Assembly (NCBI GenBank): GCA_020631975.1
Contig: JACKGO010000008.1
Location: 72,446-136,445, forward strand
Direction: 5' to 3'
DNA from: Candidatus Nomurabacteria bacterium
Lineage (GTDB): Bacteria > Patescibacteriota > Saccharimonadia > Saccharimonadales > CAIOMD01
Length of the DNA stretch: 64,000 nucleotides
Below, one piece after another: positions 16,688 through 32,989 of the stretch (position 1 is the stretch's first letter; the number at the start of each line of letters is the position of its first letter). The position numbers and the translations under genes are program-made. The notes beneath the pieces are model-generated. The model saw nothing but the letters and a program-made list of their open reading frames with translations, searched no databases and was not told where the DNA came from.

Positions 16688-16691
16688 ATAT

Positions 16692-16746: not shown

Positions 16747-17166
16747 CTAGGATGCTGTGTTGGCAACGTTGCCAAGTACAAACTTCACAATAACCTGCGC
16801 AAGCGCCACGATGATAAGACCTACTATTGCGTACAATATGGTGTTCTTTGCAGAAGTAACGCTACCGGCATCACCACCGCTGGTAATGTAGCGGAAACCG
16901 CCATAGATAATCATGATGACAGAAACAACACCAACAACCCAAGAAAAGATATTAATGATGAGGTTTACCGTATCATTAACACCTTCTGATGCTTCGTCAT
17001 TGATATTTGTACAGTCGCCAGCAGTGTTAGGTGCTTGCAAGTTTGCGCCACCACACAGGCCACTTTGAATATCACTTTGAGCAATTGCTATAGCAGGAAC
17101 GGTCAATGGAGCGAGCATACCTACAGCTGTGAATGCCGCTATTATTAATGTTTTTAGTCTGTTCAT
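16747..17166 (-). CDS. VirB2/TrbC-like T4SS pilin paralog 1 (139 aa)
   Basis: Signal peptide, variable Cys-containing region, conserved core IINIFSWVVGVVSVIMIIYGGFRYITSGGDAGSVTSAKNTILYAIVGLII (TM-loop-TM). Confidence 0.75.
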   Translation of the reverse strand: MNRLKTLIIAAFTAVGMLAPLTVPAIAIAQSDIQSGLCGGANLQAPNTAGDCTNINDEASEGVNDTVNLIINIFSWVVGVVSVIMIIYGGFRYITSGGDAGSVTSAKNTILYAIVGLIIVALAQVIVKFVLGNVANTAS

Positions 17167-17250: not shown

Positions 17251-17457
17251 TTTAGGTTACATTACCAAGCACAAAAAGCACAAGTACTTGCGCGAGTGCG
17301 GCGATTACCAAACCAACCAGTGCATAGACAATGGTATTTTTGGCGCTTGTTACTTTACCAGCATCACCCCCGCTAGTGATATACCGAAAACCACCAAATA
17401 TGACCATAATGACCGATACCACACCAACGATCCATGAAAAGATGTTGATGATGTCTT
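17251..17457. repeat. ~207-bp direct repeat (3' halves of pilin genes 2 and 3), partner at 17645-17851
   Basis: Near-identical by eye, with about 4 substitutions. Offset 394 bp. Confidence 0.85.
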
Positions 17458-17623
17458 CTACCAGAGTGTTAACTTTTGCTGGTGCGCTGCCCGCACATTG
17501 GTCACCGGTACATGTAGCTTCGACACCTTTTTTTATCTGTGCATAGCTCGTAGTAGTTGTAAGTACAGGGCCTACGAAAGCAAATGTTGCGAGTGCTGCT
17601 AGGCCTATTAAAAACGCTTTCAT
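17252..17623 (-). CDS. VirB2/TrbC-like T4SS pilin paralog 2 (123 aa)
   Basis: Same architecture. C-terminal 68 aa identical to paralog 3. Confidence 0.75.
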   Translation of the reverse strand: MKAFLIGLAALATFAFVGPVLTTTTSYAQIKKGVEATCTGDQCAGSAPAKVNTLVEDIINIFSWIVGVVSVIMVIFGGFRYITSGGDAGKVTSAKNTIVYALVGLVIAALAQVLVLFVLGNVT

Positions 17624-17644
17624 TTTTTTACTCCTTTATTTATC

Positions 17645-17851
17645 TTTAGGTTACATTACCAAGCACAAAAAGCACAAGTACTTGCGCGAGTGCCGCGATT
17701 ACCAAACCAACTAGTGCATAGACAATGGTATTTTTGGCACTGGTTACTTTACCAGCATCACCCCCGCTAGTGATATACCGAAAACCACCAAATATGACCA
17801 TAATGACCGATACCACACCAACGATCCATGAAAAGATGTTGATGATGTCTT
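17645..17851. repeat. ~207-bp direct repeat, partner of 17251-17457
   Basis: See partner entry. Confidence 0.85.
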
Positions 17852-18044
17852 GCACGAGGTTGTTTGCTTTTGCCTTAACACCTATTTTATTGCCCTCGCT
17901 GTCGTACTGCTGGCAGTTACCATCCGGACACGTAGCATTGATGCCATCTGTTACTGGGCTAGCGTATATGGGTAAACTCAATGCTGGCAGGGCAGCGGCA
18001 CTTAGTCCAAACACTGCTACGATTACTAAAAAGAGTTTTTTCAT
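17646..18044 (-). CDS. VirB2/TrbC-like T4SS pilin paralog 3 (132 aa)
   Basis: Same architecture. Variable region carries CPDGNC. Confidence 0.75.
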   Translation of the reverse strand: MKKLFLVIVAVFGLSAAALPALSLPIYASPVTDGINATCPDGNCQQYDSEGNKIGVKAKANNLVQDIINIFSWIVGVVSVIMVIFGGFRYITSGGDAGKVTSAKNTIVYALVGLVIAALAQVLVLFVLGNVT

Positions 18045-18057
18045 TTTATATCCTTTA

Positions 18058-18459
18058 TTAGTTTAATAACTTTGCTATTGCAAATAATATCAACCGATTT
18101 GCTAATACAACAACCACTAACCCAACAAGTGAGTACAATATAGTCTGCCGCCCAGTTGCTGCCTTTTGCGGTTCACCAGCGCTGGTAATGTACTTAAAAC
18201 CACCAAATATAACCATAAAAACTGCAAGCGCACCTGCTACAAAAGATAATATATTAATTATTCTCTTAATAAGAATTAGTATTGCGTTATCGCCCGGGTC
18301 GGCGTCACTACCTTTATCGTAGCCTTTACATAGTGAACTGGTTGGGTTGTTTTTGCACACTTCGGTTAAATCTTCTGTTGCGCTCGCAGCCATCGCTAAA
18401 GGACTTATGGTCAAAAAAAGTAGTGCTGTGGCGAATAAAGATGTCAAAAACATTTTCAT
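18058..18459 (-). CDS. VirB2/TrbC-like T4SS pilin paralog 4 (133 aa)
   Basis: Signal peptide, CKNNPTSSLC, core INILSFVAGALAVFMVIFGGFKYITSAGEPQKAATGRQTILYSLVGLVV. Confidence 0.7.
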   Translation of the reverse strand: MKMFLTSLFATALLFLTISPLAMAASATEDLTEVCKNNPTSSLCKGYDKGSDADPGDNAILILIKRIINILSFVAGALAVFMVIFGGFKYITSAGEPQKAATGRQTILYSLVGLVVVVLANRLILFAIAKLLN

Positions 18460-18468
18460 ATGTATGTG

Positions 18469-18747
18469 CTACGTCACCCTATTAAATATAAACAGAACAA
18501 TGACTTGGGCAAAAAATATTACAACCAACCCCGCTACGGCATATATAATCGCACGGCGAGCTTGGGCAACCTTTTCTGAATTACCCTGCGAAATAATCAG
18601 TTGTATACCAGAATAGACAACCATAATGACGGCAACTGCTCCAAAAATAGCGAGAACGTAATTTAAAATCGTGCCAAAACTATTTGTGTTTGTTTTTGGT
18701 AAATAATCAGAACTAATTATTGCTGAAAATGTGTATAAAATATTCAT
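18469..18747 (-). CDS. VirB2/TrbC-like T4SS pilin paralog 5 (92 aa, short N-terminus)
   Basis: Core LNYVLAIFGAVAVIMVVYSGIQLIISQGNSEKVAQARRAIIYAVAGLVV. No obvious long variable region. Confidence 0.65.
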   Translation of the reverse strand: MNILYTFSAIISSDYLPKTNTNSFGTILNYVLAIFGAVAVIMVVYSGIQLIISQGNSEKVAQARRAIIYAVAGLVVIFFAQVIVLFIFNRVT

Positions 18748-18749
18748 AT

Positions 18750-19259
18750 TTAGGCGAGTCCTCCGGCAATAAAGCCAACTATTTGCGACGCGATAACTGC
18801 AATTACCATACCTACCAAGGCATTAAACAGCGTTGTTCTGGCAGCGGCAATTTTTTGCGGTTCACCATCGCTCGTAAGTAATTTAAAACCGCCCCAAATA
18901 ATCATCACTACAGCAATAACGCCTGCTACATATAGAAGGATATCAAATATCCCCATAAGTATTAGAATAATGACTGTTCCACCTAGGCCATCTGTTTTAA
19001 TTTCACATTGCCCATTTACTTTTTGCCCCGGCAAGTACTGATACCAGGTTGGAAGAGGCAGACCTCCGCTACCTGGCCGGCATTTATTACCTTCTGCCTG
19101 TATGTTTGCTTCTGTTCCATCTGCTTGACGGGGGTTTTCTGGATTATCTGATTGCGCAACAACATGCACCGTAGACGGTACTATACCTAGCACAGCAATA
19201 CCCATACTTGGTACGAGTAATAGTGCTAGGCTTGTGAGAACTTTGGCAACGAGCTGCAT
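18750..19259 (-). CDS. VirB2/TrbC-like T4SS pilin paralog 6 (169 aa from Met at 19259)
   Basis: Start chosen at MQLVAKV (signal-like), overlapping the upstream stop (TAATG). Core FDILLYVAGVIAVVMIIWGGFKLLTSDGEPQKIAAARTTLFNALVGMVI. Confidence 0.7.
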   Translation of the reverse strand: MQLVAKVLTSLALLLVPSMGIAVLGIVPSTVHVVAQSDNPENPRQADGTEANIQAEGNKCRPGSGGLPLPTWYQYLPGQKVNGQCEIKTDGLGGTVIILILMGIFDILLYVAGVIAVVMIIWGGFKLLTSDGEPQKIAAARTTLFNALVGMVIAVIASQIVGFIAGGLA

Positions 19260-19633
19260 TAAAACACGCCCCCCGGTATTAACCACTGTATAAAGGCGTA
19301 CAAAAAGAAGTAGGCCACTAAACCAAATACAACGTTCCATATTTTTTCTTTAGCCGCTTGTACGTTTTGTGCGTTGTCTCTTGCTGTCATGTACTGTATG
19401 CCTGCCCACGCAATCATGACAGAACCACCAGCTAATATTGTTACAGAAAGCACATTAATAAAAAATTCTATCCATTTAATTATTGGGTTATCTTTAATGT
19501 CAGATGCAGTAGTTTGACCATTAGTTGGTGAAGGCTGTTTTAAGCCCTGCGCATAGGCAGCTTGTGTTGCAGGCATGGTAGTACCGCATAAACTTGCCGC
19601 TGCAATTGCTAAAATAAATAATGTTTTTTTCAT
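19259..19633 (-). CDS. VirB2/TrbC-like T4SS pilin paralog 7 (124 aa)
   Basis: Signal peptide, core FINVLSVTILAGGSVMIAWAGIQYMTARDNAQNVQAAKEKIWNVVFGLV. Confidence 0.65.
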   Translation of the reverse strand: MKKTLFILAIAAASLCGTTMPATQAAYAQGLKQPSPTNGQTTASDIKDNPIIKWIEFFINVLSVTILAGGSVMIAWAGIQYMTARDNAQNVQAAKEKIWNVVFGLVAYFFLYAFIQWLIPGGVF

Positions 19634-19826
19634 TTTTAATCAATATACTTTACCCACTTATTAAACCATAAAATTAGCTTGTAATACACAGTCTACTTTT
19701 ATATATAGTGCTACGCATTGTAATTCACTAGCTTTATAAATCTATTACAATTAATGCATGGTGTCATTTTACCTGTAGAGACTTTTGCTCAAAATGCAAT
19801 AAAATGGTAAATTTTATATAGTAGTT

Positions 19827-22658
19827 ATGCTATTAAAACAAACCCAGAAGACTCTTAAACTACTTTTACCATTGTTGGTAATTTTTGCTTTTGCTATGAC
19901 TCATTTTTCTACTGTTGCATTTGCGGCAGGTGATTATGTAGATGTAGACCGTGACAACACCTTATTTTATTACAATGCTGACAAAAATGTTTTTCTCGCC
20001 GTCAGAGATGGTAATATAGTTATCTTTGGCAAAGAGGCTGGTAATGATAATGGATGGAAGCAAAAGGTCGACCTTTACGGCAAGGGTACTATAGACTGTT
20101 CTTCACGTATACAGATAGATAAAGCTATCAATCCAAATATTTTTAACCCTCTCGTAAATAGAGCTGTGCTCTACGAAGCTGGAGGAAACAACTGTGCGGA
20201 CGAAAACTATCATCAAGGTGCAATTGATCTACAGAATGAAGATGAATCAGTTACAAAGGCAGCCCAAAATATTAACTGGGGTAACGAACCGCTCGGCTGC
20301 CCTAAATTCGGTAATATACCAAATAACGCTAATAAAAAAGATCTCAATTATAACTGCCCAAACGGTGGTGCGGTTATAAAAGGCGTATATGACAAAAATG
20401 AAAAAATTGATACACCACGACTAGCAAGTGCTAACGCAAGTGCTTGTGGTGATGTAGCAGGTGCTTTTGGGTGGTTAATATGCGAACCTGCCGAGAAAAT
20501 TGGAGATTTTACCATGTGGTTCGAAAAGCAACTGTATACTTTGTTGCACATAAATGAACTGCCCTTGGCTGCTGATGGTGGTGTTTACCAAGCTTGGGCA
20601 AGTATTCGAACTGTGGCAACAACAGTATTGGTGCTCGTGGCGCTTGTTGCAATTGCCTCCCAAATATTTAATTTTGATTTTATTAGTGCCTATACTATTA
20701 AAAAAATAATACCCAAAATAGTTATCGCTACCATTTTGATTTTCACATCGTATTATCTTGCAGCAATGGGTATTGCGTTTGTGAATGCGCTTGGTGATGG
20801 CGTAAATGCTCTTATTTTGGCGCCTTTTCCTGATTTAATGGACGCTTATAATCAAAACGAAACGATATCTTTTGTACTTAGCAATATTTCTGGTATTGGT
20901 GGTGGAGAAGCTGGGGTTGCGGGTGGCATAATTGTAGGCGCAGGTATAGCAGCAATAGGTGGGGCTGGATTGTTCGGGTTGCTCATACCAATTATACTTG
21001 TAATAGGCGCGGTGGTTGTCGCGTTTATTACACTTGTACTAAGAAAAGTATTTATATTAGCACTCGTACTCATTATGCCCCTTGCAATTGTGGCATGGAT
21101 ACTGCCTGGTACGCAAAAATGGTTTGATAGCTGGTGGAAGCTCTTTTCTAAACTACTCCTTATGTACCCATTAGTCATCGGCTTGCTCGCAGTGGGTAAG
21201 GTAGCTGCATATTTAATAGCTACCGGCACAGAATCAGTTACAGCTGCTGCACTACCACAAGTATGGAATGTTTTGGCTGTGAATGGGCAGGCATCTATAG
21301 TTATTCTAATGGTGCTGATAGCTTATTTTGGCCCCTACTATTTTATTCCAAGTATGTTTAAAACAGCAGGTGGTGTGTTTGGAAAAATCACCAGTGGCAT
21401 GCAAAGCTTTGGAAGTAAATACGCACGTAAAGGCGGCGAAGCGTCAAGTAAGTGGGTTGGTGATAGAGCAGCCTCGAGATATAGGCCAGGTGCAAAGGGA
21501 GCACGAAAGTTCATTGGAAACTCTGCCATTAGATTGGGTACTGGAAAATTACTACCCACCCAATCAGGTGCACGCGCAATAGCTAGCCGCGGTGTAAACT
21601 TTGAAAAAGAAAGATTGCAGCAAGCTGAGTTTCTGCATGGCCAGGCCGAAAGATCTATGGATCACAACACATATTTAGACTATCTTGAAAAAACAGGATC
21701 AAGCAGAAGCATATATGACAGACAAGCTGCTCACAATATACTCGTTAGGCAAAAGGGCTATGATCAGCTAGAAAGATTGCGTGATAGAAACGGAGAAGAA
21801 GAGTGGAATAGGATGATAAGTGTAGGCGATACATACTCAGCTATCAAATCAACAAATAGGAGTGTACTAACATCTGATACTGCACTGGCCATAGAAGACG
21901 GTAGTATCTTTGATGACACTGAAGAAAAGAAGCAATTATTAAATAAGTACTATAATGCGGCACGTTCTCAAGGTGTTACTAACCTAAGCCAAGATGAGTT
22001 CGTAACTGACCTAAAGACTAGGGCAGGAACTAAAGACGCTGTCAGAGAAGCGAGAAAGGTTGACAAGGCAAAAATAATTCAGGAGATGAGTGGTGACGAG
22101 ATTATAGCTTCACATGATAGCATTTACTTTAGTCAAGACTTTGATAGTGATGGAAAGCCAAAACCAGATAAAATTCATAACGTTCAGTTTATGTCTGATG
22201 CATCAAAAGAGAGTATAGCTATCAATCAGAACCTAGTTGGTCGCGCAACTGCTACAGCAAAGCGAGAGCTTGGCCTTTCTGGCGGAGGCGGTGGTTCTGG
22301 TGGTGGTGGTAACTCAGGTCCTAGTTCTGGCGGAGGCGGTGGTTCTGGTGGTGGTGGTAACTCAGGTCCTAGTTCTGGCGGAGGCGGTGGTTCAGGCCAA
22401 TCGGCACCAGCAGGACCCGGATATGTAGCACCAATGCCACCGCCAACACCGGGAACAGCCTACACAGGACTAACGCCACCAGCAGCACCAGCAAAGGTAG
22501 TCCTAGACGAGACTTCAATCAGAGAATTGGCCAATAATGTAAGAGAGTCAGGCGGCAAAGGTTTGTCCAAAGAAGATAGAAGAGATATATCGCAAGAAAC
22601 CGCTGAAAGAATAGAAAACATCGAAAGAACCAGGAACGACGATGGACCCCCGGTATAG
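19827..22658 (+). CDS. VirB6/TrbL-like polytopic T4SS membrane protein with large N-terminal exodomain and G/S-rich C-terminal tail (943 aa)
   Basis: Signal/TM, ~230-aa Cys-containing soluble region, then at least 6 hydrophobic helices (residues ~260-520), then a long hydrophilic tail with GGGGSGGGGNSGPSS repeats. Confidence 0.65.
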   Translation: MLLKQTQKTLKLLLPLLVIFAFAMTHFSTVAFAAGDYVDVDRDNTLFYYNADKNVFLAVRDGNIVIFGKEAGNDNGWKQKVDLYGKGTIDCSSRIQIDKAINPNIFNPLVNRAVLYEAGGNNCADENYHQGAIDLQNEDESVTKAAQNINWGNEPLGCPKFGNIPNNANKKDLNYNCPNGGAVIKGVYDKNEKIDTPRLASANASACGDVAGAFGWLICEPAEKIGDFTMWFEKQLYTLLHINELPLAADGGVYQAWASIRTVATTVLVLVALVAIASQIFNFDFISAYTIKKIIPKIVIATILIFTSYYLAAMGIAFVNALGDGVNALILAPFPDLMDAYNQNETISFVLSNISGIGGGEAGVAGGIIVGAGIAAIGGAGLFGLLIPIILVIGAVVVAFITLVLRKVFILALVLIMPLAIVAWILPGTQKWFDSWWKLFSKLLLMYPLVIGLLAVGKVAAYLIATGTESVTAAALPQVWNVLAVNGQASIVILMVLIAYFGPYYFIPSMFKTAGGVFGKITSGMQSFGSKYARKGGEASSKWVGDRAASRYRPGAKGARKFIGNSAIRLGTGKLLPTQSGARAIASRGVNFEKERLQQAEFLHGQAERSMDHNTYLDYLEKTGSSRSIYDRQAAHNILVRQKGYDQLERLRDRNGEEEWNRMISVGDTYSAIKSTNRSVLTSDTALAIEDGSIFDDTEEKKQLLNKYYNAARSQGVTNLSQDEFVTDLKTRAGTKDAVREARKVDKAKIIQEMSGDEIIASHDSIYFSQDFDSDGKPKPDKIHNVQFMSDASKESIAINQNLVGRATATAKRELGLSGGGGGSGGGGNSGPSSGGGGGSGGGGNSGPSSGGGGGSGQSAPAGPGYVAPMPPPTPGTAYTGLTPPAAPAKVVLDETSIRELANNVRESGGKGLSKEDRRDISQETAERIENIERTRNDDGPPV
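22281..22394 (+). repeat. 48-bp tandem repeat, about 2.4 copies, encoding GGGGGSGGGGNSGPSS
   Basis: ggcggaggcggtggttctggtggtggtggtaactcaggtcctagttct repeated at 22281, 22329 and (partial) 22377. Confidence 0.9.
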
Positions 22659-22667
22659 GATAGATGT

Positions 22668-23789
22668 ATGGCGACATATAAAGTAATACAAGACGTAGAA
22701 GCAGAAGATAAGATACTAGGGCCCCTAAGCCTAAAGCAGCTTATCTTTGCCGCTATTGCGGCAGGTTCTATATTTATTGCTTTTAGGATTGTGGTTGCAA
22801 CTGGGGTTATATACACTGCTATTCCGTTTTTGCCATTTATATTAGTTTTTGGCGTGTTGGCGGCACCTCTTGGGCGTGACCAGCCAACAGAAATGTGGTT
22901 GGCGGCACAAATACGTTTTTACACCAAGCCGAGGGTCCGTATATGGGACCAAAGTGGTATTAAAAACTTAGTGAACATTACTGCACCTATAAGAATAGAA
23001 AAAATTTACACCGATGGCTTAAACCAAAATCAAGTGCGTAGTCGGCTAAAAGCACTTGCTTCTACCCTAGATAGCCGTGGCTGGGCGGTAAAGAACGTAG
23101 ATGTAAATATGTATACCACGCCTGGCTACGCCCAATTTAATTCTGATAGAATTATAGACCCGGTTAGCTTGCCAATAACTGTCAGCGACATAGATGTGCG
23201 TGCTTCTGACGATATTTTAGATGTAGCAAACAATGATACCGCCCAGCATTTTGATAACCTTATGCAAACGGCAGCACAGACCCATCATCAAGAATTAATG
23301 GCAAAAATACACAGCGCTGCAGCGCAGCAACCAAGTGCAGCCTTGCCTCGTAACGATGCAGATGATGACGCCCTAAACTATACGCCACCAGCAGCTACAC
23401 CGCCTTCATATGACACACCACCGCCCCAACAACAAGCTACCATACCTACAGATCAGCCCATACATGAAATTACCCAAGAAGATGAACAAAAAATTATCGA
23501 ACACGCTAAACTCGAACGCCAACGCTCTGAAGTACAATATGCATCGCATCATAAAGTTGTCCTAACACCTCAGCAGCAAGCAGATTTAGCAAAACAGCAA
23601 GCACTTAAAGACCAAGAACAAGCCAAAGAGGCAGCAGAAAGCCAGCCCTCCCAGCAGACACACCTTTCAAAGACTGATACAATAGAACTTGCTAATGCTA
23701 ACCTGAAGGTATCTACAATTGCTGGTCTTGCCAAGCATAAAACACAAGAAAAGCAGGACCCAACAGAAGTTGTAGTGAAGCTTCATTAA
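22668..23789 (+). CDS. PrgI/VirB3-like T4SS membrane protein with long Q/P-rich C-terminal extension (373 aa)
   Basis: N-terminus YKVIQDVEAEDKILGPLSLKQLIFAAIAAG followed by two TM helices, as in PrgI-family proteins of monoderm T4SSs. Confidence 0.6.
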   Translation: MATYKVIQDVEAEDKILGPLSLKQLIFAAIAAGSIFIAFRIVVATGVIYTAIPFLPFILVFGVLAAPLGRDQPTEMWLAAQIRFYTKPRVRIWDQSGIKNLVNITAPIRIEKIYTDGLNQNQVRSRLKALASTLDSRGWAVKNVDVNMYTTPGYAQFNSDRIIDPVSLPITVSDIDVRASDDILDVANNDTAQHFDNLMQTAAQTHHQELMAKIHSAAAQQPSAALPRNDADDDALNYTPPAATPPSYDTPPPQQQATIPTDQPIHEITQEDEQKIIEHAKLERQRSEVQYASHHKVVLTPQQQADLAKQQALKDQEQAKEAAESQPSQQTHLSKTDTIELANANLKVSTIAGLAKHKTQEKQDPTEVVVKLH

Positions 23790-23819
23790 GGGGTGGGACC
23801 CTCGTTATAGCCCATAAGA

Positions 23820-24677
23820 ATGTACCCAGATCAACAAAATCAACAACCAGTTGCACAAAATCAGTATGGACCGCCGGCTGCCGGGATGCCTCAACCTGGC
23901 GCACCCGTTGTAGGGCAGATGTCGGCATCTTCCAACGAAGCCGCCACTGCGCCCAAAAGCAACCCAAATAGTACCCAAAACGTGCTACAAATTGCAGAAA
24001 TAAGAGACGGCGTGGCCATTATGAATGATGGGTCGTTTAGGTCGGTACTAATGTGCCGGAGCATTAATTTTGACCTTATGAGCCCAGAAGAACGCGAAGG
24101 CGTAGAATACGCCTACCAAAACTTTTTAAATTCGCTGTATTTTGAAGTTCAAATACTCGTTAGGTCAAGTAAAGTAGACATTCGGCCATACCTAGAAAAA
24201 TTAGATAAAATACGCTCCGAGCACGACAACATGCTCCTAGGTGTTTTGATGGAAGATTACATAAACTACATAGCAGCGCTCGCCGACCAAACCAATATAA
24301 TGGATAAAAAGTTTTACATTGCTATTCCGTTTTACAGCAGCCTAGACACCCGAAAGGTTGCCCAAGCCAGCAAAAGTGTACTTACAACCATATTTGGCCA
24401 CAAAGAACAGGTAGTAACGATAGACGAAGCCACCTTAGAGGCTGCCAAAACAGAACTGAAAAACCGAGCCCAAACGGTGCTTTCTGGGCTCATGCAATGT
24501 GGTGTACAAGGTGCTGCACTAGATACCCAAGAACTAATTGAGCTTTATTATGACGCCTACAACCCAGATACTGCCACCCGCCAGCCCCTAAAAAACTTTG
24601 CAGATTTAACTGCGCCGGTGGTAACTAAAGGGCAAGGTAATGCTGCCCAGCCAAACCTAGATAGGGAGATGCAATAA
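23820..24677 (+). CDS. T4SS-associated protein resembling a VirB4 N-terminal domain; Q/P-rich N-terminus (285 aa)
   Basis: IAEIRDGVAIMNDGSFRSVLMCRSINFDLMSPEEREGVEYAYQNFLNSLYFEVQILV pattern. Stop abuts the virB4 start. Confidence 0.4.
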   Translation: MYPDQQNQQPVAQNQYGPPAAGMPQPGAPVVGQMSASSNEAATAPKSNPNSTQNVLQIAEIRDGVAIMNDGSFRSVLMCRSINFDLMSPEEREGVEYAYQNFLNSLYFEVQILVRSSKVDIRPYLEKLDKIRSEHDNMLLGVLMEDYINYIAALADQTNIMDKKFYIAIPFYSSLDTRKVAQASKSVLTTIFGHKEQVVTIDEATLEAAKTELKNRAQTVLSGLMQCGVQGAALDTQELIELYYDAYNPDTATRQPLKNFADLTAPVVTKGQGNAAQPNLDREMQ

Positions 24678-26555
24678 ATGGGTCTTTTTAAGAAAAAAAA
24701 GCAGCAGCTTGACCCTGTGGCGCTTGCCGAACAACAACGTTTGCAAGAACAACAAGAAGTTCAGGCGGCATTCCAAAAAGGTGTTACTGCACTCCGTGAC
24801 TTTATTGCACCAAGTAGTATTGAATTTAGTAGTAGTTATTTTCAGATTGGTACCCGTTTTGCACGGACTTACTACGTTTTTGGCTACCCCAGGCAAATAC
24901 ACACAGGCTGGATAAGTAGCTTTGTAAATATAGACGAAGTAGTCGATTTATCGTTATTTATTTACCCGGTAGAAAGCCAAGTTGTACTAGAAAACCTACG
25001 TAAAAAAGTATCACAGCTAGAGGCTGGCCTACAAATAGATGCCGAAAAAGGTAGGGTACGCGACCCAGGTAAACAAGCCGCCATACTAGACGCAGAAGAA
25101 CTGCGCGATAAACTACAGGTTGGTGAAGAAAAGTTCTTTCGGTTTGGTATGTATTTTACCGTGTATGGCAACTCGCTAGATGAACTCGATTTTGTAAGCC
25201 ACAAGATAGAATCTATGCTTGGCCAACAGTTGGTGTTTAGTAAACCTGCCAGCGCCCAGCAAGAACAAGGTCTAAACAGCACAATTCCACAATTTGTAGA
25301 TCAGTTGCAAATTAGAAGAAATATGAACACCGGCGCTATTGGCACCAGTTTTCCGTTTACCAGTGCCGATTTAAGTGACGATCACGGTATTTTATATGGC
25401 ATAAATATGCACAACAGTGGCTTGGTGATATTTGACCGCTTTAGCCTAGAAAATGGCAATAGCGTTGTATTTGCTAAATCTGGTGCAGGGAAAAGCTTTG
25501 CCGTAAAGCTAGAGGCTTTGCGTAGCCTTATGTTGGGTGTAGAAATATTTATTGTAGACCCAGAAAACGAATATGAACGTATGAGTGAAGCAGTTGGTGG
25601 GGCATACGTAAAACTCAGCCTAAATTCGCCAACCCGTATTAACCCGTTTGATTTACCACTAGTCGTAGATACAGAAGAAGCAGATAATGCCTTGCGCAGT
25701 AACCTTATAACCTTACATGGACTGTTGCGTTTGATGATGGGTGGTGCACAAGCCCAAATGGCCGCCAGCCAAGGTTCGGTGGTTGCACCAGCGCTTAACC
25801 CAACAGAAGAAGCAGATTTAGACGCCGCGCTATTAGAAACCTACGCTAAAGCGGGTATCACCAACGACCCATTAACCCATAACAGTACCCCGCCAACCAT
25901 CCACGATTTATACGACACCTTGCTGCATATGGGGGGCACAGGTCCACAACTTGCCCAGCGACTACGCAAATATACCACTGGTACGTTTTCTGGTATTTTT
26001 AGCCAGCAAAGTAACGTAGATATTAACAACCCGTTTGTCGTGTTTAATATTCGTGACCTAGAAGATGAACTACGCCCCGTGGCAATGTATATTGTGCTTA
26101 ATTACATTTGGAATAAAACAAAGTCAGATCAAAAAAGGCGAATGCTAGTAATAGACGAAGCCTGGCAACTGATGAAATACGAAGATAGCGCCAGTTTTAT
26201 GTTTAGCTTAGCTAAAAGAGCCCGTAAGTATAATTTAGGAATCACCACTATTTCGCAGGATGTAGAAGACTTTATGAGTTCACGCCTTGGGCGGGCCATT
26301 GTGGCTAATGCATCTATGCAAATTTTACTAAAACAATCTGTAAGTGCCGTAGACGTATTGGCAGATGTCTTTAAGCTCACATCAGAAGAAAAAAAGCGCC
26401 TCAGCCAGTTCCCGGTTGGGCAAGGACTCTTCTTTGCTGGGCAAAGTCACGTGCATATACAAATTGCTGCCAGCCCATCAGAAACAAGCCTTATAACAAC
26501 CAACCCAGAACAAATAAAACTACTCGAAGACCAAGGCCAAATACCCGTCAGATAA
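24678..26555 (+). CDS. virB4: VirB4/TrsE-family T4SS ATPase (625 aa)
   Basis: Walker A FAKSGAGKSF, Walker B MLVIDEAWQL. N-terminal YFQIGTRFARTYYVFGYPRQIHTGWIS typical of VirB4/TrsE. Confidence 0.9.
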   Translation: MGLFKKKKQQLDPVALAEQQRLQEQQEVQAAFQKGVTALRDFIAPSSIEFSSSYFQIGTRFARTYYVFGYPRQIHTGWISSFVNIDEVVDLSLFIYPVESQVVLENLRKKVSQLEAGLQIDAEKGRVRDPGKQAAILDAEELRDKLQVGEEKFFRFGMYFTVYGNSLDELDFVSHKIESMLGQQLVFSKPASAQQEQGLNSTIPQFVDQLQIRRNMNTGAIGTSFPFTSADLSDDHGILYGINMHNSGLVIFDRFSLENGNSVVFAKSGAGKSFAVKLEALRSLMLGVEIFIVDPENEYERMSEAVGGAYVKLSLNSPTRINPFDLPLVVDTEEADNALRSNLITLHGLLRLMMGGAQAQMAASQGSVVAPALNPTEEADLDAALLETYAKAGITNDPLTHNSTPPTIHDLYDTLLHMGGTGPQLAQRLRKYTTGTFSGIFSQQSNVDINNPFVVFNIRDLEDELRPVAMYIVLNYIWNKTKSDQKRRMLVIDEAWQLMKYEDSASFMFSLAKRARKYNLGITTISQDVEDFMSSRLGRAIVANASMQILLKQSVSAVDVLADVFKLTSEEKKRLSQFPVGQGLFFAGQSHVHIQIAASPSETSLITTNPEQIKLLEDQGQIPVR

Positions 26556-26636
26556 GATATGGTAACCAGATTCTGTACCATGCGCATTCATCGTGTTTAT
26601 GGTATACTATAAGAGAAAATTGGGTAAACAACTCGC

Positions 26637-29573
26637 ATGCCAAAAACACTAACAAATCCAGACAACAAAGAAGGTACAAATAGCGACCCTAAAGAGGGTC
26701 AATTTGATGATAGTTATTGGGAAAATAAGTTTCGATCTCCCGCTATAGATGATTCTGATAAAAACATTTCTAGTTCTAGTTCTGCACAAGGTGATTCATC
26801 TCTTGCAGAAACAGAAACCCAACAAGAATCAGCTAACTCTAATTCTTTATACTCGACAGACGATAGTGAATCACAATTCATTCGTTCATCAATGAAAGAA
26901 AAAAGTAAGTTTTATTTCGCATTAATCAAAAAGAGAAAATCACTCCTATTTATTTTTGCAATAGCTGTTCCAACACTGGCATTTGTTGTAGGTTCGCTTG
27001 GACCGCTTAAATTTCTGCATATGTCCGAAATGCTCCAAGATCTTAGTTTTAGTAACCAAGAGATATCTATGTCTCATAGAATCCGTAATTTAGTCGTATA
27101 TTCACAGCTAGCTAGAGGTGGCGATGGAAAGCTTGAAAATACTCGATTAGGCACAATAGAAGCTTATAGAGCTGGGAAAATAGATAAAAAATTAGCAAAA
27201 AGTGGCCTGAAAATGGAATATTCGAGACCAGGGGGCAAATTTGAAAGGATTACACTTAATTTAGATGACATGCCTGATGATTTAAAACAAGATTTAAAAG
27301 GTGTAAAATCTGATGCTGACAGGAATGCAAAAATTGCCAAAAAGTTTGGTGTAGATATTAAATCAATTGAAAGATCCGGGAATGTGATATCAATTAAAGC
27401 TGGTGGTACGTTCAATAATCGTACAATAATACATAAAATGCTGGCTATTTCGCCTGATTTTGATAAAAGAGCTGCTGCGTGGGCTGCGAGACCATTGATA
27501 AAAAGGTCGAACGCGACTTATAATCCTAATACCAAAATAAGAGAAGCTGTAAAATCGTCTGCCGCTGAAACATATAAGAAGTTTCAAGACAGTCGCAGGG
27601 CACGACTAGCAAGTGCAACTAAGGATGTTGACCTTCATGGTAAGAGTGGTAGTAAATTGTTTAAGGAAATAGCGTCAAAAACAGTGACTTCGGTAGGTCA
27701 GATTGTGACTGAAGCAGGCACGATAATTGGTGCAGTTGTAGCGGTCGTACAGCTAAGTTGCACTGTTCGTGATTCTGCTGACCAAATAGCAAATATACAA
27801 ACTCTTAATAAGGTAATGCCAATGATGAATGCTGCAAACGAACTTATTTCAGTTGCTAGTAAAATGAAAGCAGGTGATGATATTGATTCAGAGTTTTTAA
27901 ATAATTACAGCAAAAATTTTAATTCTTCTGACAATGGGGTTGATGGCAACTGGAATAACGCTACTTTAATAAAGTACGCAAACAGCGTAAGCAGTGGTGT
28001 TCCTATTAATGATGACTATGAAACGGAGCAGACGTTTCAACGATATCCCGAACTTGATCCAAATAATAAAAAATTCATTCAGAAGGCAAACAATATTATT
28101 GAATTTGCTGACACCCAATACAATCAAGCAATGCTATCAATACCTATGTTTGGACAAATTATACAAGCATATAACGCTTTACCTTTGGACGATATAAAAC
28201 CCACTGATTTAAGTTGTGGTGTGGTTAATTTGCCTGGCGATATATTAATGAAAGTAGTAGATACAGTTGGAGGTTATAGCCCTCTTTATCAAATCGTTAA
28301 AGGGAAGTTCGAAGAATTGGGTAATGCAATAATTGGCTGGATTGCTGGTTCTGCAATTGACTTAACTGAAGATAAATATGCTGGAGCACCCTATGCAGAA
28401 GCGGTATTCTTGGGTGGAAGATATATGGCGAATGAATCGTCTATGAGTATGGGTGGGCAACCATTAACTGATGCGCAAGAGGTTAAACAAAACGAGATTG
28501 TAAGAGAGTATAGAGCCATTAATGACGAGCGCAATTTTATTGCAAAAATGTTTGATATTAAAGATTACCGTAGTCCGGCAGCACAAGTAGCAAGCAGTAT
28601 TTATGCACAAGACTCTCTTGAAACAGTAGCAGCTATTCCTCAAAGAACATTGTCCAATATTAATAGTGTGTTATTTAAAAAAGTAAACGCCGCACCACCG
28701 CCATCACAAGTATTTTATGGCGTCCCTATGGTTGGTTTTGATCTAGATAGATTAGATAAAGATGCATATGAAAACCCTTATATAAATGCCGAGTATGTAT
28801 ACGATAACTTAAGTAATGATCCTGATAAAAAAGCTCATTTCGAAGAATGCACCGGAATAGAAATAACTGCCAATTATGACTTTATAACACACTCGTACGA
28901 AGACGAAAATAATCCTACCGCTTTATATCTACAACCAGATTATGAATCTAGATGTAAAGACATGGATACAGATGAAGTATTGTTTCGTACTAGATTACTC
29001 GCATTTGACACCCTAACACTAAAAAGCTTTAGTTGTCTCGAGTTTGATGATGAAGAATCATGCAAAGAATTATTACCCTACGACACCAACAACGAAGACA
29101 CTGGCGACGGCGAGGAAGACTCACAAGATAAATTTGTTTGGCCGCTCAAAACCGACATTAAAATTAACTCGTGCTTTAATCAACCCCTGAGTAAAGGACC
29201 CCACCCTGGACTGGACTTTTATGCAAACATGAACACACCCGTATTTGCAGTCGCCAGCGGCGAGGTTGTCGGCCAATTAGGCGGTTCATACGGCATAGTT
29301 GAAATCAAACACAATGATGAACTTTACTCTGTATACGAACACTTGAGCAGCATTGATGTAAGAAAGGGGCAAAAAGTAGACACGGGGCAAAAAATTGGCT
29401 CATCGGGCCAGACCGGATCACCTGGTGCTCCGCATCTACACTTTGGGTTTACAAAAGATGTAAGCGTATTTGCGTACGCACAAATGGGTCAAGGGAAGAT
29501 AATTAACCCGCTTAGGTATTTAAATGACAACCAAGACTATAAACAGTGCTCAGCAAAGCCGGAAATTCAATGA
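26637..29573 (+). CDS. 978-aa membrane-anchored protein with C-terminal M23 (LytM-type) peptidase domain
   Basis: TM at about residue 100 (LLFIFAIAVPTLAFVVG). C-terminal HPGLDF...EHLSS...GSPGAPHLHFG M23 metallopeptidase motifs. Confidence 0.8.
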   Translation: MPKTLTNPDNKEGTNSDPKEGQFDDSYWENKFRSPAIDDSDKNISSSSSAQGDSSLAETETQQESANSNSLYSTDDSESQFIRSSMKEKSKFYFALIKKRKSLLFIFAIAVPTLAFVVGSLGPLKFLHMSEMLQDLSFSNQEISMSHRIRNLVVYSQLARGGDGKLENTRLGTIEAYRAGKIDKKLAKSGLKMEYSRPGGKFERITLNLDDMPDDLKQDLKGVKSDADRNAKIAKKFGVDIKSIERSGNVISIKAGGTFNNRTIIHKMLAISPDFDKRAAAWAARPLIKRSNATYNPNTKIREAVKSSAAETYKKFQDSRRARLASATKDVDLHGKSGSKLFKEIASKTVTSVGQIVTEAGTIIGAVVAVVQLSCTVRDSADQIANIQTLNKVMPMMNAANELISVASKMKAGDDIDSEFLNNYSKNFNSSDNGVDGNWNNATLIKYANSVSSGVPINDDYETEQTFQRYPELDPNNKKFIQKANNIIEFADTQYNQAMLSIPMFGQIIQAYNALPLDDIKPTDLSCGVVNLPGDILMKVVDTVGGYSPLYQIVKGKFEELGNAIIGWIAGSAIDLTEDKYAGAPYAEAVFLGGRYMANESSMSMGGQPLTDAQEVKQNEIVREYRAINDERNFIAKMFDIKDYRSPAAQVASSIYAQDSLETVAAIPQRTLSNINSVLFKKVNAAPPPSQVFYGVPMVGFDLDRLDKDAYENPYINAEYVYDNLSNDPDKKAHFEECTGIEITANYDFITHSYEDENNPTALYLQPDYESRCKDMDTDEVLFRTRLLAFDTLTLKSFSCLEFDDEESCKELLPYDTNNEDTGDGEEDSQDKFVWPLKTDIKINSCFNQPLSKGPHPGLDFYANMNTPVFAVASGEVVGQLGGSYGIVEIKHNDELYSVYEHLSSIDVRKGQKVDTGQKIGSSGQTGSPGAPHLHFGFTKDVSVFAYAQMGQGKIINPLRYLNDNQDYKQCSAKPEIQ

Positions 29574-29613: not shown

Positions 29614-31428
29614 ATGAAAGTCACTCAAACCAGTATGAAAATATCTAGAATTATTCAATTTATTGTGCTGGCGGTTTTTGTTTTTAGTTTAGGATTAAAC
29701 ACGGCTTATGCCGAAGACAAACCTACTACCCAAGACATGATAAATAAAGGCATTTATTATTATGACCCGGTTGTTGCATGCATTGACCCAGACGAAGCAG
29801 ATGAAGCACAGGAAGTTGGATCTGTGTTGTTTGTAGGCGATTCAATTTTGGTCGGAACACAAGATGCAATAAAAAATAAACTAATCGATCAAAATATCGC
29901 AAGCGATAGAATAATCTTTGACGGTGAAGTATCTCGCTCTATCAACAAAAAAGGCCAAAGTGATGGGGAGAGCGGCATAGACGCATTAAAGAAAAACAAA
30001 AATATAATAAAAAATGCCAATACGGTAGTTGTTGAATTGGGTACAAATGGCGGCATTCAAAAAGACGATGTAAAGAAATTGATTGATACAATAAAAGATA
30101 TTAATAAAAAGGCAAGCATATATTGGGTTAATATTGGTGTAACACGTGATGATTTGGATAAAATAGAAAAGGATAGCAACAAAGTACTAGATGACACTTA
30201 TAAAGATCAAGGGTTTACTATCATAGACTGGGCACAAGAGGTAACTAACGCAAACAAGCAATCAATTACACTACTGGAGGATGGTGTACACACGAATGAA
30301 AAAGGTAAGAATGCTCTGGCTGAAATCATAACAAATAAAATTAAAGATAGCGCTACTCAGCCGCTTTCATCATTTAGCTTGAACACGAACTATAACACTA
30401 AAACCACAACCGGTCGTGCTGCAAAAATATGGGCCTATTTAACAAGTGACGAAGGTCTACAATTAACGCCAGTCCAGGCAGCCGGTGCTTTGGGTAACCT
30501 CGAGCAAGAAAACTCGTTATTTCACCCAAAGGTTACCCAAGGTGGCGGCAGATCAAATGAGGTCATTGTGGATGGTTCAACCGGATATGGAATTATGCAA
30601 TGGACTAGCTCAGGTAGACAGCAGGGATTAAAAAGTCATGCCGAAAAAATAGGTAAAAGTTCTGGTACTCTTGACGCTCAACTGTCCTACATAAAACATG
30701 AACTTAATAATGGCTATGAAAGTACCCTAGATCGTTTAAAAGAAGTTAAAGACGACCCTATAGAAGCCGCCTTTGTATGGCATGGTGCTGGTAATTTTAA
30801 CATCCCGGGATTAACACCAACACCCGGCTTTGAGAGCTCTGGTGACACCGAGAGTGTAGTCAGAACCGAAAGGGGCGGTAGTGCAAAAAAATGGCTTAAT
30901 AAATTTGGCGATAAAAATTTGCAATACTCCTCAGATGATACCGATTGTTACCAGTCAATAGACAACTCAGATATCGGCGTAGAGGGTTCAAAAATTTACA
31001 CCGACAGCCCTATGTCAATACCAAAAGGTAAGCAAGTCGCCGAACAAGCCAAGCGCTGGGCAAAAAACGACCCTAATTGCGGCTTTCACGGCAGCAATGG
31101 TTGCACAAGGCAGTGCCTGGGTATTGTTTCTGATTTATGGAAATCAGTCGGTAAGGGTATGGTGAGTGGTGAAACTGCCTGGGACGCCTATAAAAGATAC
31201 AGAGACAATGGTTGGGTCAACAAAAATAAAGAAATACCAATCGGCGCTATTATGTGGTCTGCAGAAAAGGGTAACGAAGGAGACGGCCATGCCTACACTT
31301 ACATTGGGAATGGTTTAATTGCATCCAACGATATAGAAGAATCTGGGAAATACTCAATAGTATCAGCGGATGAAATAGAAAAAAAGTGGGGACATACGTT
31401 CTATGGATGGAGTGAGTGGCATGGATAA
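29614..31428 (+). CDS. secreted three-domain cell-wall hydrolase: SGNH esterase, phage-tail-lysozyme-like domain, NlpC/P60- or CHAP-like domain
   Basis: Signal peptide. LFVGDSILVG and EDGVHTN (SGNH blocks I and V). AAGALGNLEQENS...GYGIMQWT (lysozyme-like). NGCTRQC...DGHAYTYIG (Cys/His papain-like). Confidence 0.7.
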   Translation: MKVTQTSMKISRIIQFIVLAVFVFSLGLNTAYAEDKPTTQDMINKGIYYYDPVVACIDPDEADEAQEVGSVLFVGDSILVGTQDAIKNKLIDQNIASDRIIFDGEVSRSINKKGQSDGESGIDALKKNKNIIKNANTVVVELGTNGGIQKDDVKKLIDTIKDINKKASIYWVNIGVTRDDLDKIEKDSNKVLDDTYKDQGFTIIDWAQEVTNANKQSITLLEDGVHTNEKGKNALAEIITNKIKDSATQPLSSFSLNTNYNTKTTTGRAAKIWAYLTSDEGLQLTPVQAAGALGNLEQENSLFHPKVTQGGGRSNEVIVDGSTGYGIMQWTSSGRQQGLKSHAEKIGKSSGTLDAQLSYIKHELNNGYESTLDRLKEVKDDPIEAAFVWHGAGNFNIPGLTPTPGFESSGDTESVVRTERGGSAKKWLNKFGDKNLQYSSDDTDCYQSIDNSDIGVEGSKIYTDSPMSIPKGKQVAEQAKRWAKNDPNCGFHGSNGCTRQCLGIVSDLWKSVGKGMVSGETAWDAYKRYRDNGWVNKNKEIPIGAIMWSAEKGNEGDGHAYTYIGNGLIASNDIEESGKYSIVSADEIEKKWGHTFYGWSEWHG

Positions 31429-32989
31429 CAATATCTATATAAGCAGTACTAATAGTAATCCAAAAAACCATACTCTATCGTTAATTATTAAAATTGTTGT
31501 TTCAATAATAGTATTATCAGTAGTTTTAATTATATTGTTTTTCATAAGCACTAGGGGTTATTTAAGTGTAACTTCAAATAACACAAAAGTATCCCTGTCT
31601 TTAGTTAATCAATTTAGTCAAAAAGATGTAGGAAATTATACTGATGGCAATAAAATGCTCATAAAGAAAAACGACTACACGCTTTTGGTACATAGTGCTA
31701 ATAAATCATATATTAGCAGCGTTAATACCAAAGGGTTTTTTCAACACACTAACGTTAATGCTCAATTAACACCGTCAGTTAAATCCAGCGTCATCGCAAC
31801 AAATCCATATCAATGTACATTTACCATGAACGATATTGTTTATAGTCATTGGTGTTTAGACAATTCAGAATATGATGGTCAAAACAATCAAGAAACTTCG
31901 CTGAAAAAACAGTATTTTGACAGCACTAACGAGGTAATACAAACTAAAGATTTTGTGTTTTTATCAAATAACCAAAAACTGTTAAGTCTGGCGCAAGTAA
32001 GCAAAAATGAAGTTTGGATGATAATAAAAACTTACCCAGTTGTGGACGATGCCGAAACGTCTCAAGAACCGTTTATTGAATTAAGAAAATATATTAATGG
32101 TGACTTTGGATCGCCGATTGACACACGAAGCATTGATAGTATCGAGTTAGGTAATATTAAACCTTATCAAGAAGGCTATGTTCTATATAGTAAAGATTCC
32201 GTGACTGCATACTATCTTGAAAGCTTTGACTCCACGATGCAACCAATATCATTTGAACAATTACCTAAACTAGACGACTATGGTTTTGATATTGTTGTTG
32301 CCGGAGATTACATAACATACTATTACAAAAATAGGCTTAGAGATTCAGGGTCGGATAATAAACCACAAAAACTATCAATTAGCAGTGTTTATAAATTAAA
32401 AGAAAAAAATACATATATAACAAACTATGAGTATACGTCCGCATTTGTTTGCCAGAAAGATACGTTATGCATATTCCTTAAGGATAAAAGTGAGTTCATT
32501 ATTCAAAATAATAGTAGTCGTACTTTATTCAAAGTTTCTGATTACTTGCCTTATAAAAATAAAGTGATTTTAAACATGATGAATAATGTTGTTATATATG
32601 ACATAGAAACTAATAGTGGTTTTATTGCTTATGAGGGTAGCTCTGATACCAATATATGTGGCATGCAAGTAACTTTAGACTCCATTAGGACATGTGTGGA
32701 TTCTGAATTAACAGATGATACATATGCATTACAATTAGATACTTCGCAATCAGAAACAGTTAATTTATTACATGGCCTGGGCGTTATAAGTAAAAACAAT
32801 CATGTAGATTATGTATCAGCTATTGGCAATACAATCATTATTAACACCAATATCATTGCTGAATATAATGAGGATACTAAAACATACAAAACTGATGCTA
32901 GTGAAAAAGATTATGCAACAAAACTTATCATGCAAAGTGTGTCGGATGCCGGTATAGATCCAAGTCTATACAATATTGTTATAAACTGA
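31403..32989 (+). CDS. membrane-anchored hypothetical protein (528 aa; alternative start at 31421)
   Basis: N-terminal TM (LSLIIKIVVSIIVLSVVLIILFFI). Visibly AT-rich. No recognisable motif. Confidence 0.55.
   Translation: MDGVSGMDNNIYISSTNSNPKNHTLSLIIKIVVSIIVLSVVLIILFFISTRGYLSVTSNNTKVSLSLVNQFSQKDVGNYTDGNKMLIKKNDYTLLVHSANKSYISSVNTKGFFQHTNVNAQLTPSVKSSVIATNPYQCTFTMNDIVYSHWCLDNSEYDGQNNQETSLKKQYFDSTNEVIQTKDFVFLSNNQKLLSLAQVSKNEVWMIIKTYPVVDDAETSQEPFIELRKYINGDFGSPIDTRSIDSIELGNIKPYQEGYVLYSKDSVTAYYLESFDSTMQPISFEQLPKLDDYGFDIVVAGDYITYYYKNRLRDSGSDNKPQKLSISSVYKLKEKNTYITNYEYTSAFVCQKDTLCIFLKDKSEFIIQNNSSRTLFKVSDYLPYKNKVILNMMNNVVIYDIETNSGFIAYEGSSDTNICGMQVTLDSIRTCVDSELTDDTYALQLDTSQSETVNLLHGLGVISKNNHVDYVSAIGNTIIINTNIIAEYNEDTKTYKTDASEKDYATKLIMQSVSDAGIDPSLYNIVIN

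Follow-up and report, generated by a model that had tools for sequence, protein, structure and literature searches.

INTRODUCTION

The best-described relatives of the T4SS (type IV secretion system) treated here, which lies at 16747–32989 of a stretch of 64,000 nucleotides (the window: positions 72,446 to 136,445 of contig JACKGO010000008.1, assembly GCA_020631975.1) from a bacterium deposited as Candidatus Nomurabacteria and classified in the Saccharimonadales, are the T4SS of Southlakia epibionticum ML1 and, grouped with it as the closest known system, the "Sec-secreted array"/T4SS of Nanosynbacter lyticus TM7x. The S. epibionticum system (SEML1_0006–0019) resembles Gram-positive conjugative systems, includes essential pilin subunits, and has no recognizable coupling or relaxase proteins; its essentiality was shown by transposon sequencing (Tn-seq), it is needed for growth on host bacteria, and protein export or another role was suggested for it (Wang et al. 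2023, Cell, PMC10633639). The accessible part of the ML1 gene table in that study lists recF, a lysozyme bearing PF18013 (0006), 0007, VirB4 (0008), PrgI (0010), two VirB6-like proteins (0011 and 0013), six PF18895 pilins (0014–0019), hsp20 (0020), and comFC (0021). The genes listed there from 0006 to 0020 are scored as essential except 0012, with no score visible for 0009 and 0017. In the literature, the Saccharibacteria T4SS counts as the first without which its own carrier bacterium was shown not to survive; nearly all Saccharibacteria have it, beside the replication origin, and the system is near-universal in a huge uncultured radiation.

A survey of 3,035 Patescibacteria genomes (Quiñonero-Coronel et al. 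2025, PMC12102498) found a monophyletic Patescibacteria VirB4 clade nested in MPF-FATA, with TrsD, PrgI, and VirB6 encoded beside VirB4, VirB2 arrays of two to 11 genes, almost no relaxases, and dnaA, dnaN, and rnpA frequently nearby; whether the pilin was co-opted from diderm systems was left open. Two other articles, a T4SS review of 2025 (PMC12857230) and a perspective of 2024 (PMC11665869), restate these findings, treat competence (ComEC) as dispensable and the T4SS as essential, and raise the idea of ComB-like uptake. In a 2026 preprint, tubular structures that are possibly T4SS pili are described at the contact site of another ultrasmall parasite, which feeds on host RNA.

Two more distant kinds of system are useful for comparison. 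The Gram-positive conjugative MPF-FATA T4SSs (Trs of pGO1, Prg of pCF10, and CTn/CD1110 of Clostridioides difficile) share with the window a CD1110-type VirB4, TrsD, PrgI, and a polytopic protein of the VirB6/PrgH type; in both, large multi-domain wall hydrolases replace VirB1 and there is no outer-membrane core of VirB7, VirB9, and VirB10. Those systems carry a relaxase, a type IV coupling protein (T4CP), and oriT on mobile elements and classically use adhesins, whereas the locus of the window is chromosomal and fixed, has no DNA-processing genes nearby, and includes a multi-gene VirB2 array. The ComB system of Helicobacter pylori is, like that of the window, a chromosomal T4SS that has neither relaxase nor T4CP and does not serve conjugation, but it is a diderm system of VirB2–4 and VirB6–10, and its homology to the window is limited to the shared VirB core. 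Competence in Saccharibacteria, unlike that provided by ComB in H. pylori, uses type IV pili and ComEC.

RESULTS AND DISCUSSION

Identity of the locus

The locus is very probably the Saccharibacteria version of the Patescibacteria-clade T4SS, that is, a chromosomal, vertically inherited system of MPF-FATA conjugation ancestry that is adjacent to the replication origin and has a gene order orthologous to SEML1_0006–0019. It shows no substantive difference from the systems of that clade (PMC12102498), with which it shares the FATA VirB4, TrsD, PrgI, VirB6, and the VirB2 array, as well as the lack of a relaxase and a site close to dnaA/dnaN/rnpA. Compared by annotation and order with the accessible part of the ML1 table, the window has the same genes and neighbors in the same order (comFC, hsp20, divergent PF18895 pilins, VirB6-like, PrgI, TrsD-like, VirB4, peptidase, lysozyme, and recF), and neither locus has a relaxase or T4CP next to it. 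The two differ in that ML1, as far as its table can be seen, has six pilins and two VirB6-like genes with a nonessential gene for an NTF2-like protein (the VirB8 fold) between these, while in the window there are seven pilins and a single VirB6-like gene, with no NTF2-like gene recognizable and a terminal gene for a membrane protein of 528 aa.

The T4SS of the window is real and all of its genes are intact. A first-pass annotation, made from the letters of the DNA, had placed four genes on the + strand of 19827–26555, and all four were found there as described; as boundaries of the unit these positions did not hold, since the pilin genes upstream and three genes downstream belong to it too, giving the larger unit stated above. 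What is established directly for the locus is its parts list and its conservation, and the confidence that any specific substrate deserves is much less than that of the identification itself.

As a discovery the locus offers nothing new, because Wang et al. (2023), Quiñonero-Coronel et al. (2025), and the 2024 perspective already describe this T4SS, and every element of the first-pass observation and interpretation is in print. Both the functions that had been proposed (effector delivery, attachment, or ComB-like uptake) and the view of a monoderm core with a pilin array as an unusual combination appear in the literature (PMC10633639, PMC12102498, PMC11665869, PMC12857230), so that the interpretation was right yet not new. 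The window thus contributes one further intact instance and raises no question beyond those already framed in print. Its small additions are a VirB4 in two pieces, a length-variable repeat in the tail of the VirB6-like protein, and the presence of pilin-like genes in its closest relatives on monoderm plasmids.

The VirB4 ATPase and its N-terminal partner

The assignment of the 625-aa protein encoded at 24678..26555 (+) as a VirB4 ATPase of the MPF-FATA type is, from its sequence matches, unambiguous. It matches the C-terminal domain of the VirB4 of Thermoanaerobacter, a Firmicute (PDB 4AG5, E = 1.2e-48), and, in the same kind of PDB sequence search, TrwK of R388 (E = 2.5e-6); it scores 362.9 bits against the NCBIfam model "VirB4-like conjugal transfer ATPase, CD1110 family" (cutoff 325) and matches P-loop_TraG, AAA_10, and DUF87 in Pfam. 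The Walker A motif that had been claimed for it is AKSGAGKS (aa 266–273, 25473–25496) and the Walker B motif is MLVIDE (aa 489–494, 26142–26159). The CD1110 score, the 4AG5 match, and the plasmid matches from Firmicutes and Actinobacteria described below all place the protein in the monoderm MPF-FATA lineage.

Directly upstream of virB4 is the gene for a TrsD-like protein of 285 aa (23820..24677, +), preceded by that of the PrgI/VirB3-like protein. The TrsD-like protein aligns to positions 2–104 of the 752-position CD1110 VirB4 profile (E = 2.2e-6) and to the TrsD model NF041427 (E = 6.9e-5), and its precomputed Pfam annotation is TraC-like (PF26593.2, of PF26593). By sequence, either as a single sequence or as a profile, it had no match in the PDB, and the top 14 PDB matches of its AlphaFold (AF2) model are all R388 TrwK/VirB4, with a probability of 0.97–1.00. 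The N-terminal profile positions and the structural matches confirm the name VirB4-N-like given to it in the first pass. In the CD1110 profile, the TrsD-like protein takes positions 2–104 and VirB4 positions 178–734, and in the Mbov_0397 profile they take positions 97–233 and 290–893, respectively, consecutively and with no overlap in either. Because the two proteins cover complementary parts of the full-length VirB4 profile, the two genes (23820–26555) look like those of a single FATA VirB4 encoded in two pieces. An hhalign comparison of the TrsD-like alignment with the alignment of the window's VirB4 showed no similarity, because the two cover complementary and not overlapping parts of VirB4.

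The PrgI/VirB3-like and VirB6-like membrane proteins

The 373-aa protein encoded at 22668..23789 (+), called PrgI-like in the first pass, has the Pfam domain PrgI (PF12666) at residues 5–92 (E = 2e-9, 38.3 bits, above the cutoff of 27). This N-terminal domain, with two to three transmembrane (TM) segments, is followed by an extension of ~280 aa of low complexity, rich in A, Q, and P, and the length of the whole protein is kept among relatives (median 370 aa).

The first gene of the operon (19827..22658, +) encodes a polytopic membrane protein of 943 aa, which we assign as an extended VirB6/TrbL-like protein. This is the least secure of the four assignments, the evidence for it being weaker but consistent. 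The precomputed Pfam annotation is TrbL_3 (PF19590.5, of PF19590) for this protein and for 30 of 32 homologs, and a Foldseek search with its AF2 model gave R388 TrwI/VirB6 as all of the top five PDB matches, with a probability of 0.91–0.97, an E-value of only 0.14–0.34, and a target TM-score of ~0.4–0.47. Our own hmmscan of the protein against Pfam and NCBIfam returned no match, and by sequence the PDB gave matches to Gly/Ser linkers alone. A live Pfam hmmscan of the VirB6-like and TrsD-like proteins returned neither PF19590 nor PF26593, even at E up to 10, despite the precomputed annotation; this mismatch may reflect a different Pfam version. The layout comprises a signal/TM segment, a beta-rich extracytoplasmic N-domain with two invariant Cys, five or more TM helices, and ~440 aa of cytoplasmic tail, and it fits the polytopic VirB6-like protein with an extracellular N-domain that had been described, the N-domain measuring ~220 aa.

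Within the part of the gene that encodes the cytoplasmic tail there is a 48-nt tandem repeat (22277–22420) of three copies, two of them identical, which encodes SGGGGGSGGGGNSGPS. Near-identical alleles of the VirB6-like gene in metagenomes encode 927 or 943 aa, a difference of exactly one repeat unit, and the repeat is thus length-variable.

The divergent VirB2-like pilin array

Beside the core, and divergent from the operon that begins with the VirB6-like gene, stand seven genes for VirB2-like T4SS pilins (16747–19633, −). The array had been recognized in the first pass as a pilin operon, and it is one; the class needed correction, as these are VirB2-type T4SS pilins (PF18895) and not type IV pilins. 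All seven proteins have a signal peptide and two C-terminal TM helices, their pairwise identity is 19–68%, and six of the seven pass the PF18895 cutoff. The divergent paralog 1 (124 aa, 19259..19633, −), encoded by the first gene of the pilin operon, falls just below it (E = 2.2e-5, 24.9 bits, cutoff 26.6).

The other paralogs are all encoded on the same strand. Paralog 2 (18750..19259, −; PF18895 E = 1.6e-10) has 169 aa in the gene calls of metagenome contigs, its longest open reading frame (ORF) extending to 19340, and paralog 3 (18469..18747, −) has 92 aa and matches PF18895 (E = 4.9e-13) and NF045849 (E = 1.8e-6). Paralog 4 (133 aa, 18058..18459, −) matches PF18895 with E = 8.6e-11. Paralogs 5 (132 aa, 17646..18044, −) and 6 (123 aa, 17252..17623, −) match both PF18895 (E = 5.5e-12 and 1.5e-12, respectively) and TrbC (E = 4.7e-5 and 2.1e-5), and the former also the NCBIfam model NF045849 (E = 4.5e-7). 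Paralog 7 (139 aa, 16747..17166, −) matches PF18895 (E = 7e-13) and the NCBIfam Mbov_0395 pilin-like model (E = 1.1e-7).

Paralogs 5 and 6 are 68% identical overall. Their genes share a 3′ segment of 229 nt (17251–17479 and 17645–17873) that is 95% identical and encodes an identical C-terminal TM core, whereas the exposed region is encoded by 5′ parts that have diverged. Such a pattern in the sequences suggests that the genes recently underwent duplication or gene conversion while the exposed region diversified.

Downstream genes and operon layout

The + strand operon consists of seven co-directional genes that overlap or are separated by gaps of at most 82 nt. Following virB4 is a gene (26637..29573, +) for a membrane-anchored protein of 978 aa, with a TM segment at 103–121 and a C-terminal M23 peptidoglycan endopeptidase domain (Pfam Peptidase_M23, residues 855–941, E = 4.7e-23). 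Judged by its domains, this protein may be a functional analog of VirB1, and it occupies the position of the essential peptidase SEML1_0007 (PMC12102498). The next gene (29614..31428, +) encodes a secreted multi-domain cell-wall hydrolase of 604 aa, which combines an SGNH/GDSL esterase (Lipase_GDSL_2, E = 3.6e-5), a phage-tail-type lysozyme (Phage_lysozyme2, E = 4.1e-24), and a Cys/His C-terminus that appears NlpC-like, a likeness read from the sequence by eye and without a database match. It appears to be the counterpart of SEML1_0006, which bears PF18013 in the visible part of the ML1 table.

The last gene of the operon (31403..32989, +) encodes a single-pass membrane protein of 528 aa, with a TM segment at 31–49 and an exterior rich in S, T, and N. 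It has no match in Pfam or NCBIfam and is poorly conserved. The end of the operon abuts recF, dnaN, and dnaA on the opposite strand, and dnaA (35806–37194) is 2.8 kb from the last operon gene. A scan for promoters and terminators between 16 and 34 kb showed no enrichment over shuffled sequences.

Conservation of the locus across Saccharibacteria

The first-pass annotation had proposed a survey of the locus across Saccharibacteria. We ran it on one genome per bacterial species, taking the 80 best VirB4 matches as loci, and 41 loci from other Saccharibacteria species with full 10-kb flanks were used for the synteny counts. A VirB4 relative was found in at least 460 species, and the best 80 are all Saccharibacteria, with 81–88% identity to the window's VirB4. 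In the 41 full loci the order is comFC, hsp20, the pilins on the opposite strand, VirB6-like, PrgI, TrsD-like, VirB4, a variable stretch of hydrolases, recF, dnaN, and dnaA. PrgI, TrsD, and VirB4 were present in every full locus (41/41), recF and dnaN in 40, the pilins in 39, and the VirB6-like gene in 38; in 38 all the pilin ORFs lie upstream on the opposite strand, with a median of six pilin genes per locus. The least constant parts are the stretch between VirB4 and recF, which varies from 4.7 to 8.5 kb, and the 528-aa membrane protein, for which a match was seen in four of the 41.

Because this gene order is kept in 38–41 of 41 Saccharibacteria species, we regard the locus as a vertically inherited chromosomal machine and not as an integrative conjugative element (ICE). 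The core genes that had been named as its flanks (hsp20, comFC, and recF-dnaN-dnaA) are likewise its neighbors in the relatives. At the same loci, the identity of VirB4 (81–87%, 80 species) is higher than that of DnaA (57–74%) and DnaN (55–78%), and VirB4 proteins identical to the window's are encoded on 23 metagenome contigs.

Plasmid relatives and the origin of the pilin

Among 72,556 plasmids, the best VirB4 matches are 28–38% identical to the window's and come from Firmicutes and Actinobacteria; as far as such similarity can tell, they fit a FATA origin. The two loci examined are those of plasmid NZ_CP108778 of Embleya sp. NBC_00896 (VirB4 38% identical) and of the 898-kb plasmid NZ_CP062975 of Pontibacillus sp. 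ALD_SL1 (37.6%). Like the window, both have one or more pilin-like genes, VirB6/TrbL-like, PrgI, TrsD-like, and VirB4 in order, with one or two pilin genes where the window has seven. The Pontibacillus locus (7483–17036 of the retrieved locus) consists of two PF18895 genes and the genes for TrbL-like, PrgI-like, TrsD-like, and VirB4 proteins and, as in the window, a large M23 peptidase comes directly after VirB4 and no T4CP or relaxase is adjacent; it adjoins flagellar genes. We considered whether this plasmid was a mislabeled epibiont genome and rejected the idea, as its WxL, DUF916, TnpB, chemotaxis, and flagellar genes look like those of a Bacillota megaplasmid. The Embleya locus (7577–18420 of the retrieved locus) has TrbL_4, PrgI, VirB4, a T4CP, a relaxase-like (replication-relaxation) gene, and NlpC/P60, and is truly conjugative because of the T4CP, the replication-relaxation protein, and NlpC/P60. 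Its PrgI and TrsD-like matches appear to fall within one coding sequence of 349 aa, and an unannotated pilin-like ORF of 176 aa (7577–8107 of the retrieved locus) lies directly upstream of the VirB6-like gene, as the two pilin genes of Pontibacillus do.

A tblastn search with one pilin against all the plasmids gave no match at 1e-3, for which the shortness of the protein and the low-complexity filter are probably responsible; local unfiltered tblastn found pilin-like ORFs in both of the plasmid loci examined. These two loci, which are not a survey, hint that the pilin was already part of the ancestral monoderm system.

Possible functions and alternative explanations

The following mechanism would be compatible with the parts. 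The VirB6-like and PrgI/VirB3-like proteins would form a membrane translocon or channel, on which the two-piece VirB4 (the TrsD-like N-domain plus the ATPase) would dock to power assembly. The M23 peptidase and the esterase/lysozyme/NlpC-like hydrolase may breach the wall of the epibiont itself or of the host cell, in place of VirB1. The seven Sec-exported pilins would polymerize into a pilus or conduit contacting the host bacterium, and their diversity might tune host range or surface properties. The cargo would be proteins delivered into the host, or host-derived macromolecules taken into the epibiont. Since no relaxase or coupling protein accompanies it, the T4SS most likely does not conjugate DNA; protein export or import of host macromolecules is what we propose, and would therefore be the reason that the orthologue is essential for epibiotic growth. 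Both directions are live options, and neither is favored by the data for the locus or by the literature.

Several points weigh against this interpretation. A T4CP could lie elsewhere in the genome, of which we have seen 64 kb, and most Patescibacteria genomes have a distant VirD4/T4CP homolog elsewhere (PMC12102498). At the locus, no VirB8-like component was identified, and the VirB6 call relies on a precomputed Pfam annotation that was not reproduced and on Foldseek matches with weak E-values. The contrast of VirB4 with DnaA and DnaN is biased, being inflated by the choice of the loci as the 80 best VirB4 matches. Finally, the function proposed is an inference from the families of the parts.

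It is extremely unlikely that the locus is an integrated conjugative element, or what is left of one in decay, whose T4SS transfers or once transferred DNA and whose relaxase, T4CP, and integrase are encoded beyond 19827–26555. Its VirB4 does belong to the CD1110 type of Gram-positive conjugative systems, the plasmid locus closest to it (Embleya, 38%) is completely equipped for conjugation, T4CP and relaxase-like gene included, and a large serine recombinase, an IS481-type transposase, and duplicated tRNA-Ser(tga) genes are found 5.5–9.5 kb upstream. Yet the genes that a conjugative element requires were not found: Pfam scans of every ORF of 271 aa or more in the window (29 in number) showed no T4CP or relaxase, as had been claimed, and the cluster stands at a chromosomal site near dnaA with all its genes intact and with its VirB4 recurring unchanged on the 23 contigs. 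The block is fixed between hsp20 and recF-dnaN-dnaA in 38–41 of 41 species, a synteny that largely refutes the idea, and the recombinase and transposase bound a different island of 6 kb (8.5–14.3 kb), cut off from the T4SS by the syntenic tRNA-Ser(gct), comFC, and hsp20 and carrying Fic and ANT(6) genes that are absent from all 86 related loci. We also considered the recombinase, the tRNA-Ser repeats, and the insertion sequence (IS) as the att ends of an ICE bearing the T4SS, and ruled this out by the same synteny and by the absence of the island from relatives. Thus, the statement of the first-pass annotation that no integrase or att sites flank the locus is correct for the T4SS itself, with its fixed position and core flanks, and incorrect for the neighborhood, where there is a serine recombinase. 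Its description of a chromosomal, domesticated, nonconjugative T4SS is supported by the synteny with core genes, the lack of T4CP and relaxase in the window, and the VirB4 identities.

Somewhat less remote, although still improbable, is a ComB-like DNA uptake system that would work together with ComFC and through which host DNA would be taken in, either for transformation or to supply nucleotides. ComB of Helicobacter is a precedent, the idea was raised in the perspective article, and comFC is 0.7 kb beyond the pilin array, an adjacency that recurs in the relatives and in S. epibionticum; however, comFC belongs to a separate transcription unit, with the oppositely oriented hsp20 between. In S. 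epibionticum, moreover, competence depends on type IV pili, and deletion of comEC abolishes it with viability unaffected, whereas the T4SS is essential. Neither Pfam nor NCBIfam revealed VirB7, VirB9, or VirB10 domains in any ORF of the cluster, so that the ComB-type core is missing, as expected for a monoderm; the first-pass observation that VirB8, VirB9, and VirB10 homologs are lacking stood for the cluster ORFs. A pilus of VirB2-like subunits that would only attach the epibiont to its host, with nothing translocated, is slightly easier to entertain, though we consider it unlikely too. It would suit an array of many pilin paralogs with variable exposed N-terminal parts and conserved TM cores, and conjugative pili serve mainly as attachment organelles; but Saccharibacteria already attach by means of type IV pili and dedicated adhesins, and the wall hydrolases and the extended VirB6 with its large cytoplasmic tail suggest a channel, no one of these points being decisive.

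Beyond the T4SS identification itself, two bolder suggestions can be made, both doubtful. The T4SS might be an import-direction feeding conduit, bringing host nucleic acids or other macromolecules into a nucleotide-auxotrophic epibiont, a speculation that is already published (PMC11665869; bioRxiv 10.64898/2026.06.21.733656). Separately, the whole package (pilin, VirB6, PrgI, split VirB4, and M23) might descend as an intact unit from a lineage of monoderm plasmids, with the pilin not co-opted, as would agree with the two plasmid loci, the only ones in its support.

The upstream variable island

The variable island upstream (8581–14262), recognized by Pfam matches, repeats, and GC content, comprises a Fic gene, a serine recombinase, an ANT(6) gene, tRNA-Ser copies, and an IS481-type element. 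It is a separate small insertion that does not bound the T4SS. The Fic gene (8836–9918) is flanked by an inverted repeat of 149 nt and the gene for the large serine recombinase (10356–12023) by one of 138 nt, both 99% identical, and the inner arms of the two repeats abut at ~10070. The third gene (12112–12963, −) encodes a protein of the ANT(6)/streptomycin adenylyltransferase family (Pfam PF04439, E = 1.6e-58); the gene is no clinical resistance determinant of recent acquisition, because the protein is only 28–29% identical to plasmid-borne ANT(6)-Ia/Str. A tRNA-Ser(tga) gene at 11887–11976 is overrun by the recombinase ORF, and a second one, at 13189–13278, is 83% identical to it over 113 nt and is followed by the IS481-type transposase gene (13333–14262). 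The GC content reaches 0.48–0.50 across 9–12 kb, against a background of ~0.40. Independent metagenome assemblies contain the island too, between the same flanks. The IS is missing from one of these assemblies, and several contigs are broken at the inverted-repeat junction; the island could be an invertible-segment system. An origin of the inverted repeats as assembly artifacts was considered and rejected, as the Fic-recombinase-ANT(6) arrangement recurs in contigs of at least five independent samples.

Other features of the window

Wedged between recF and dnaN is a gene (34060–34416, −) that PF05635 (E = 2.6e-33) assigns to the "23S rRNA intervening sequence protein" family; it also has a weak bAvd-like match. 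It occurs in only ~10 of the 86 related loci, sometimes in another place inside the T4SS cluster (two loci). A large surface-polysaccharide cluster extends over 40246–63418; besides several glycosyltransferases of the families GT1, GT2, GT4, and GT8 and an ABC-2 exporter pair, it encodes a GDSL-domain protein of 941 aa, a UDP-glucose dehydrogenase, and an FkbM methyltransferase. Within this cluster, the GC content is very low (0.29–0.35) over 51–59 kb.

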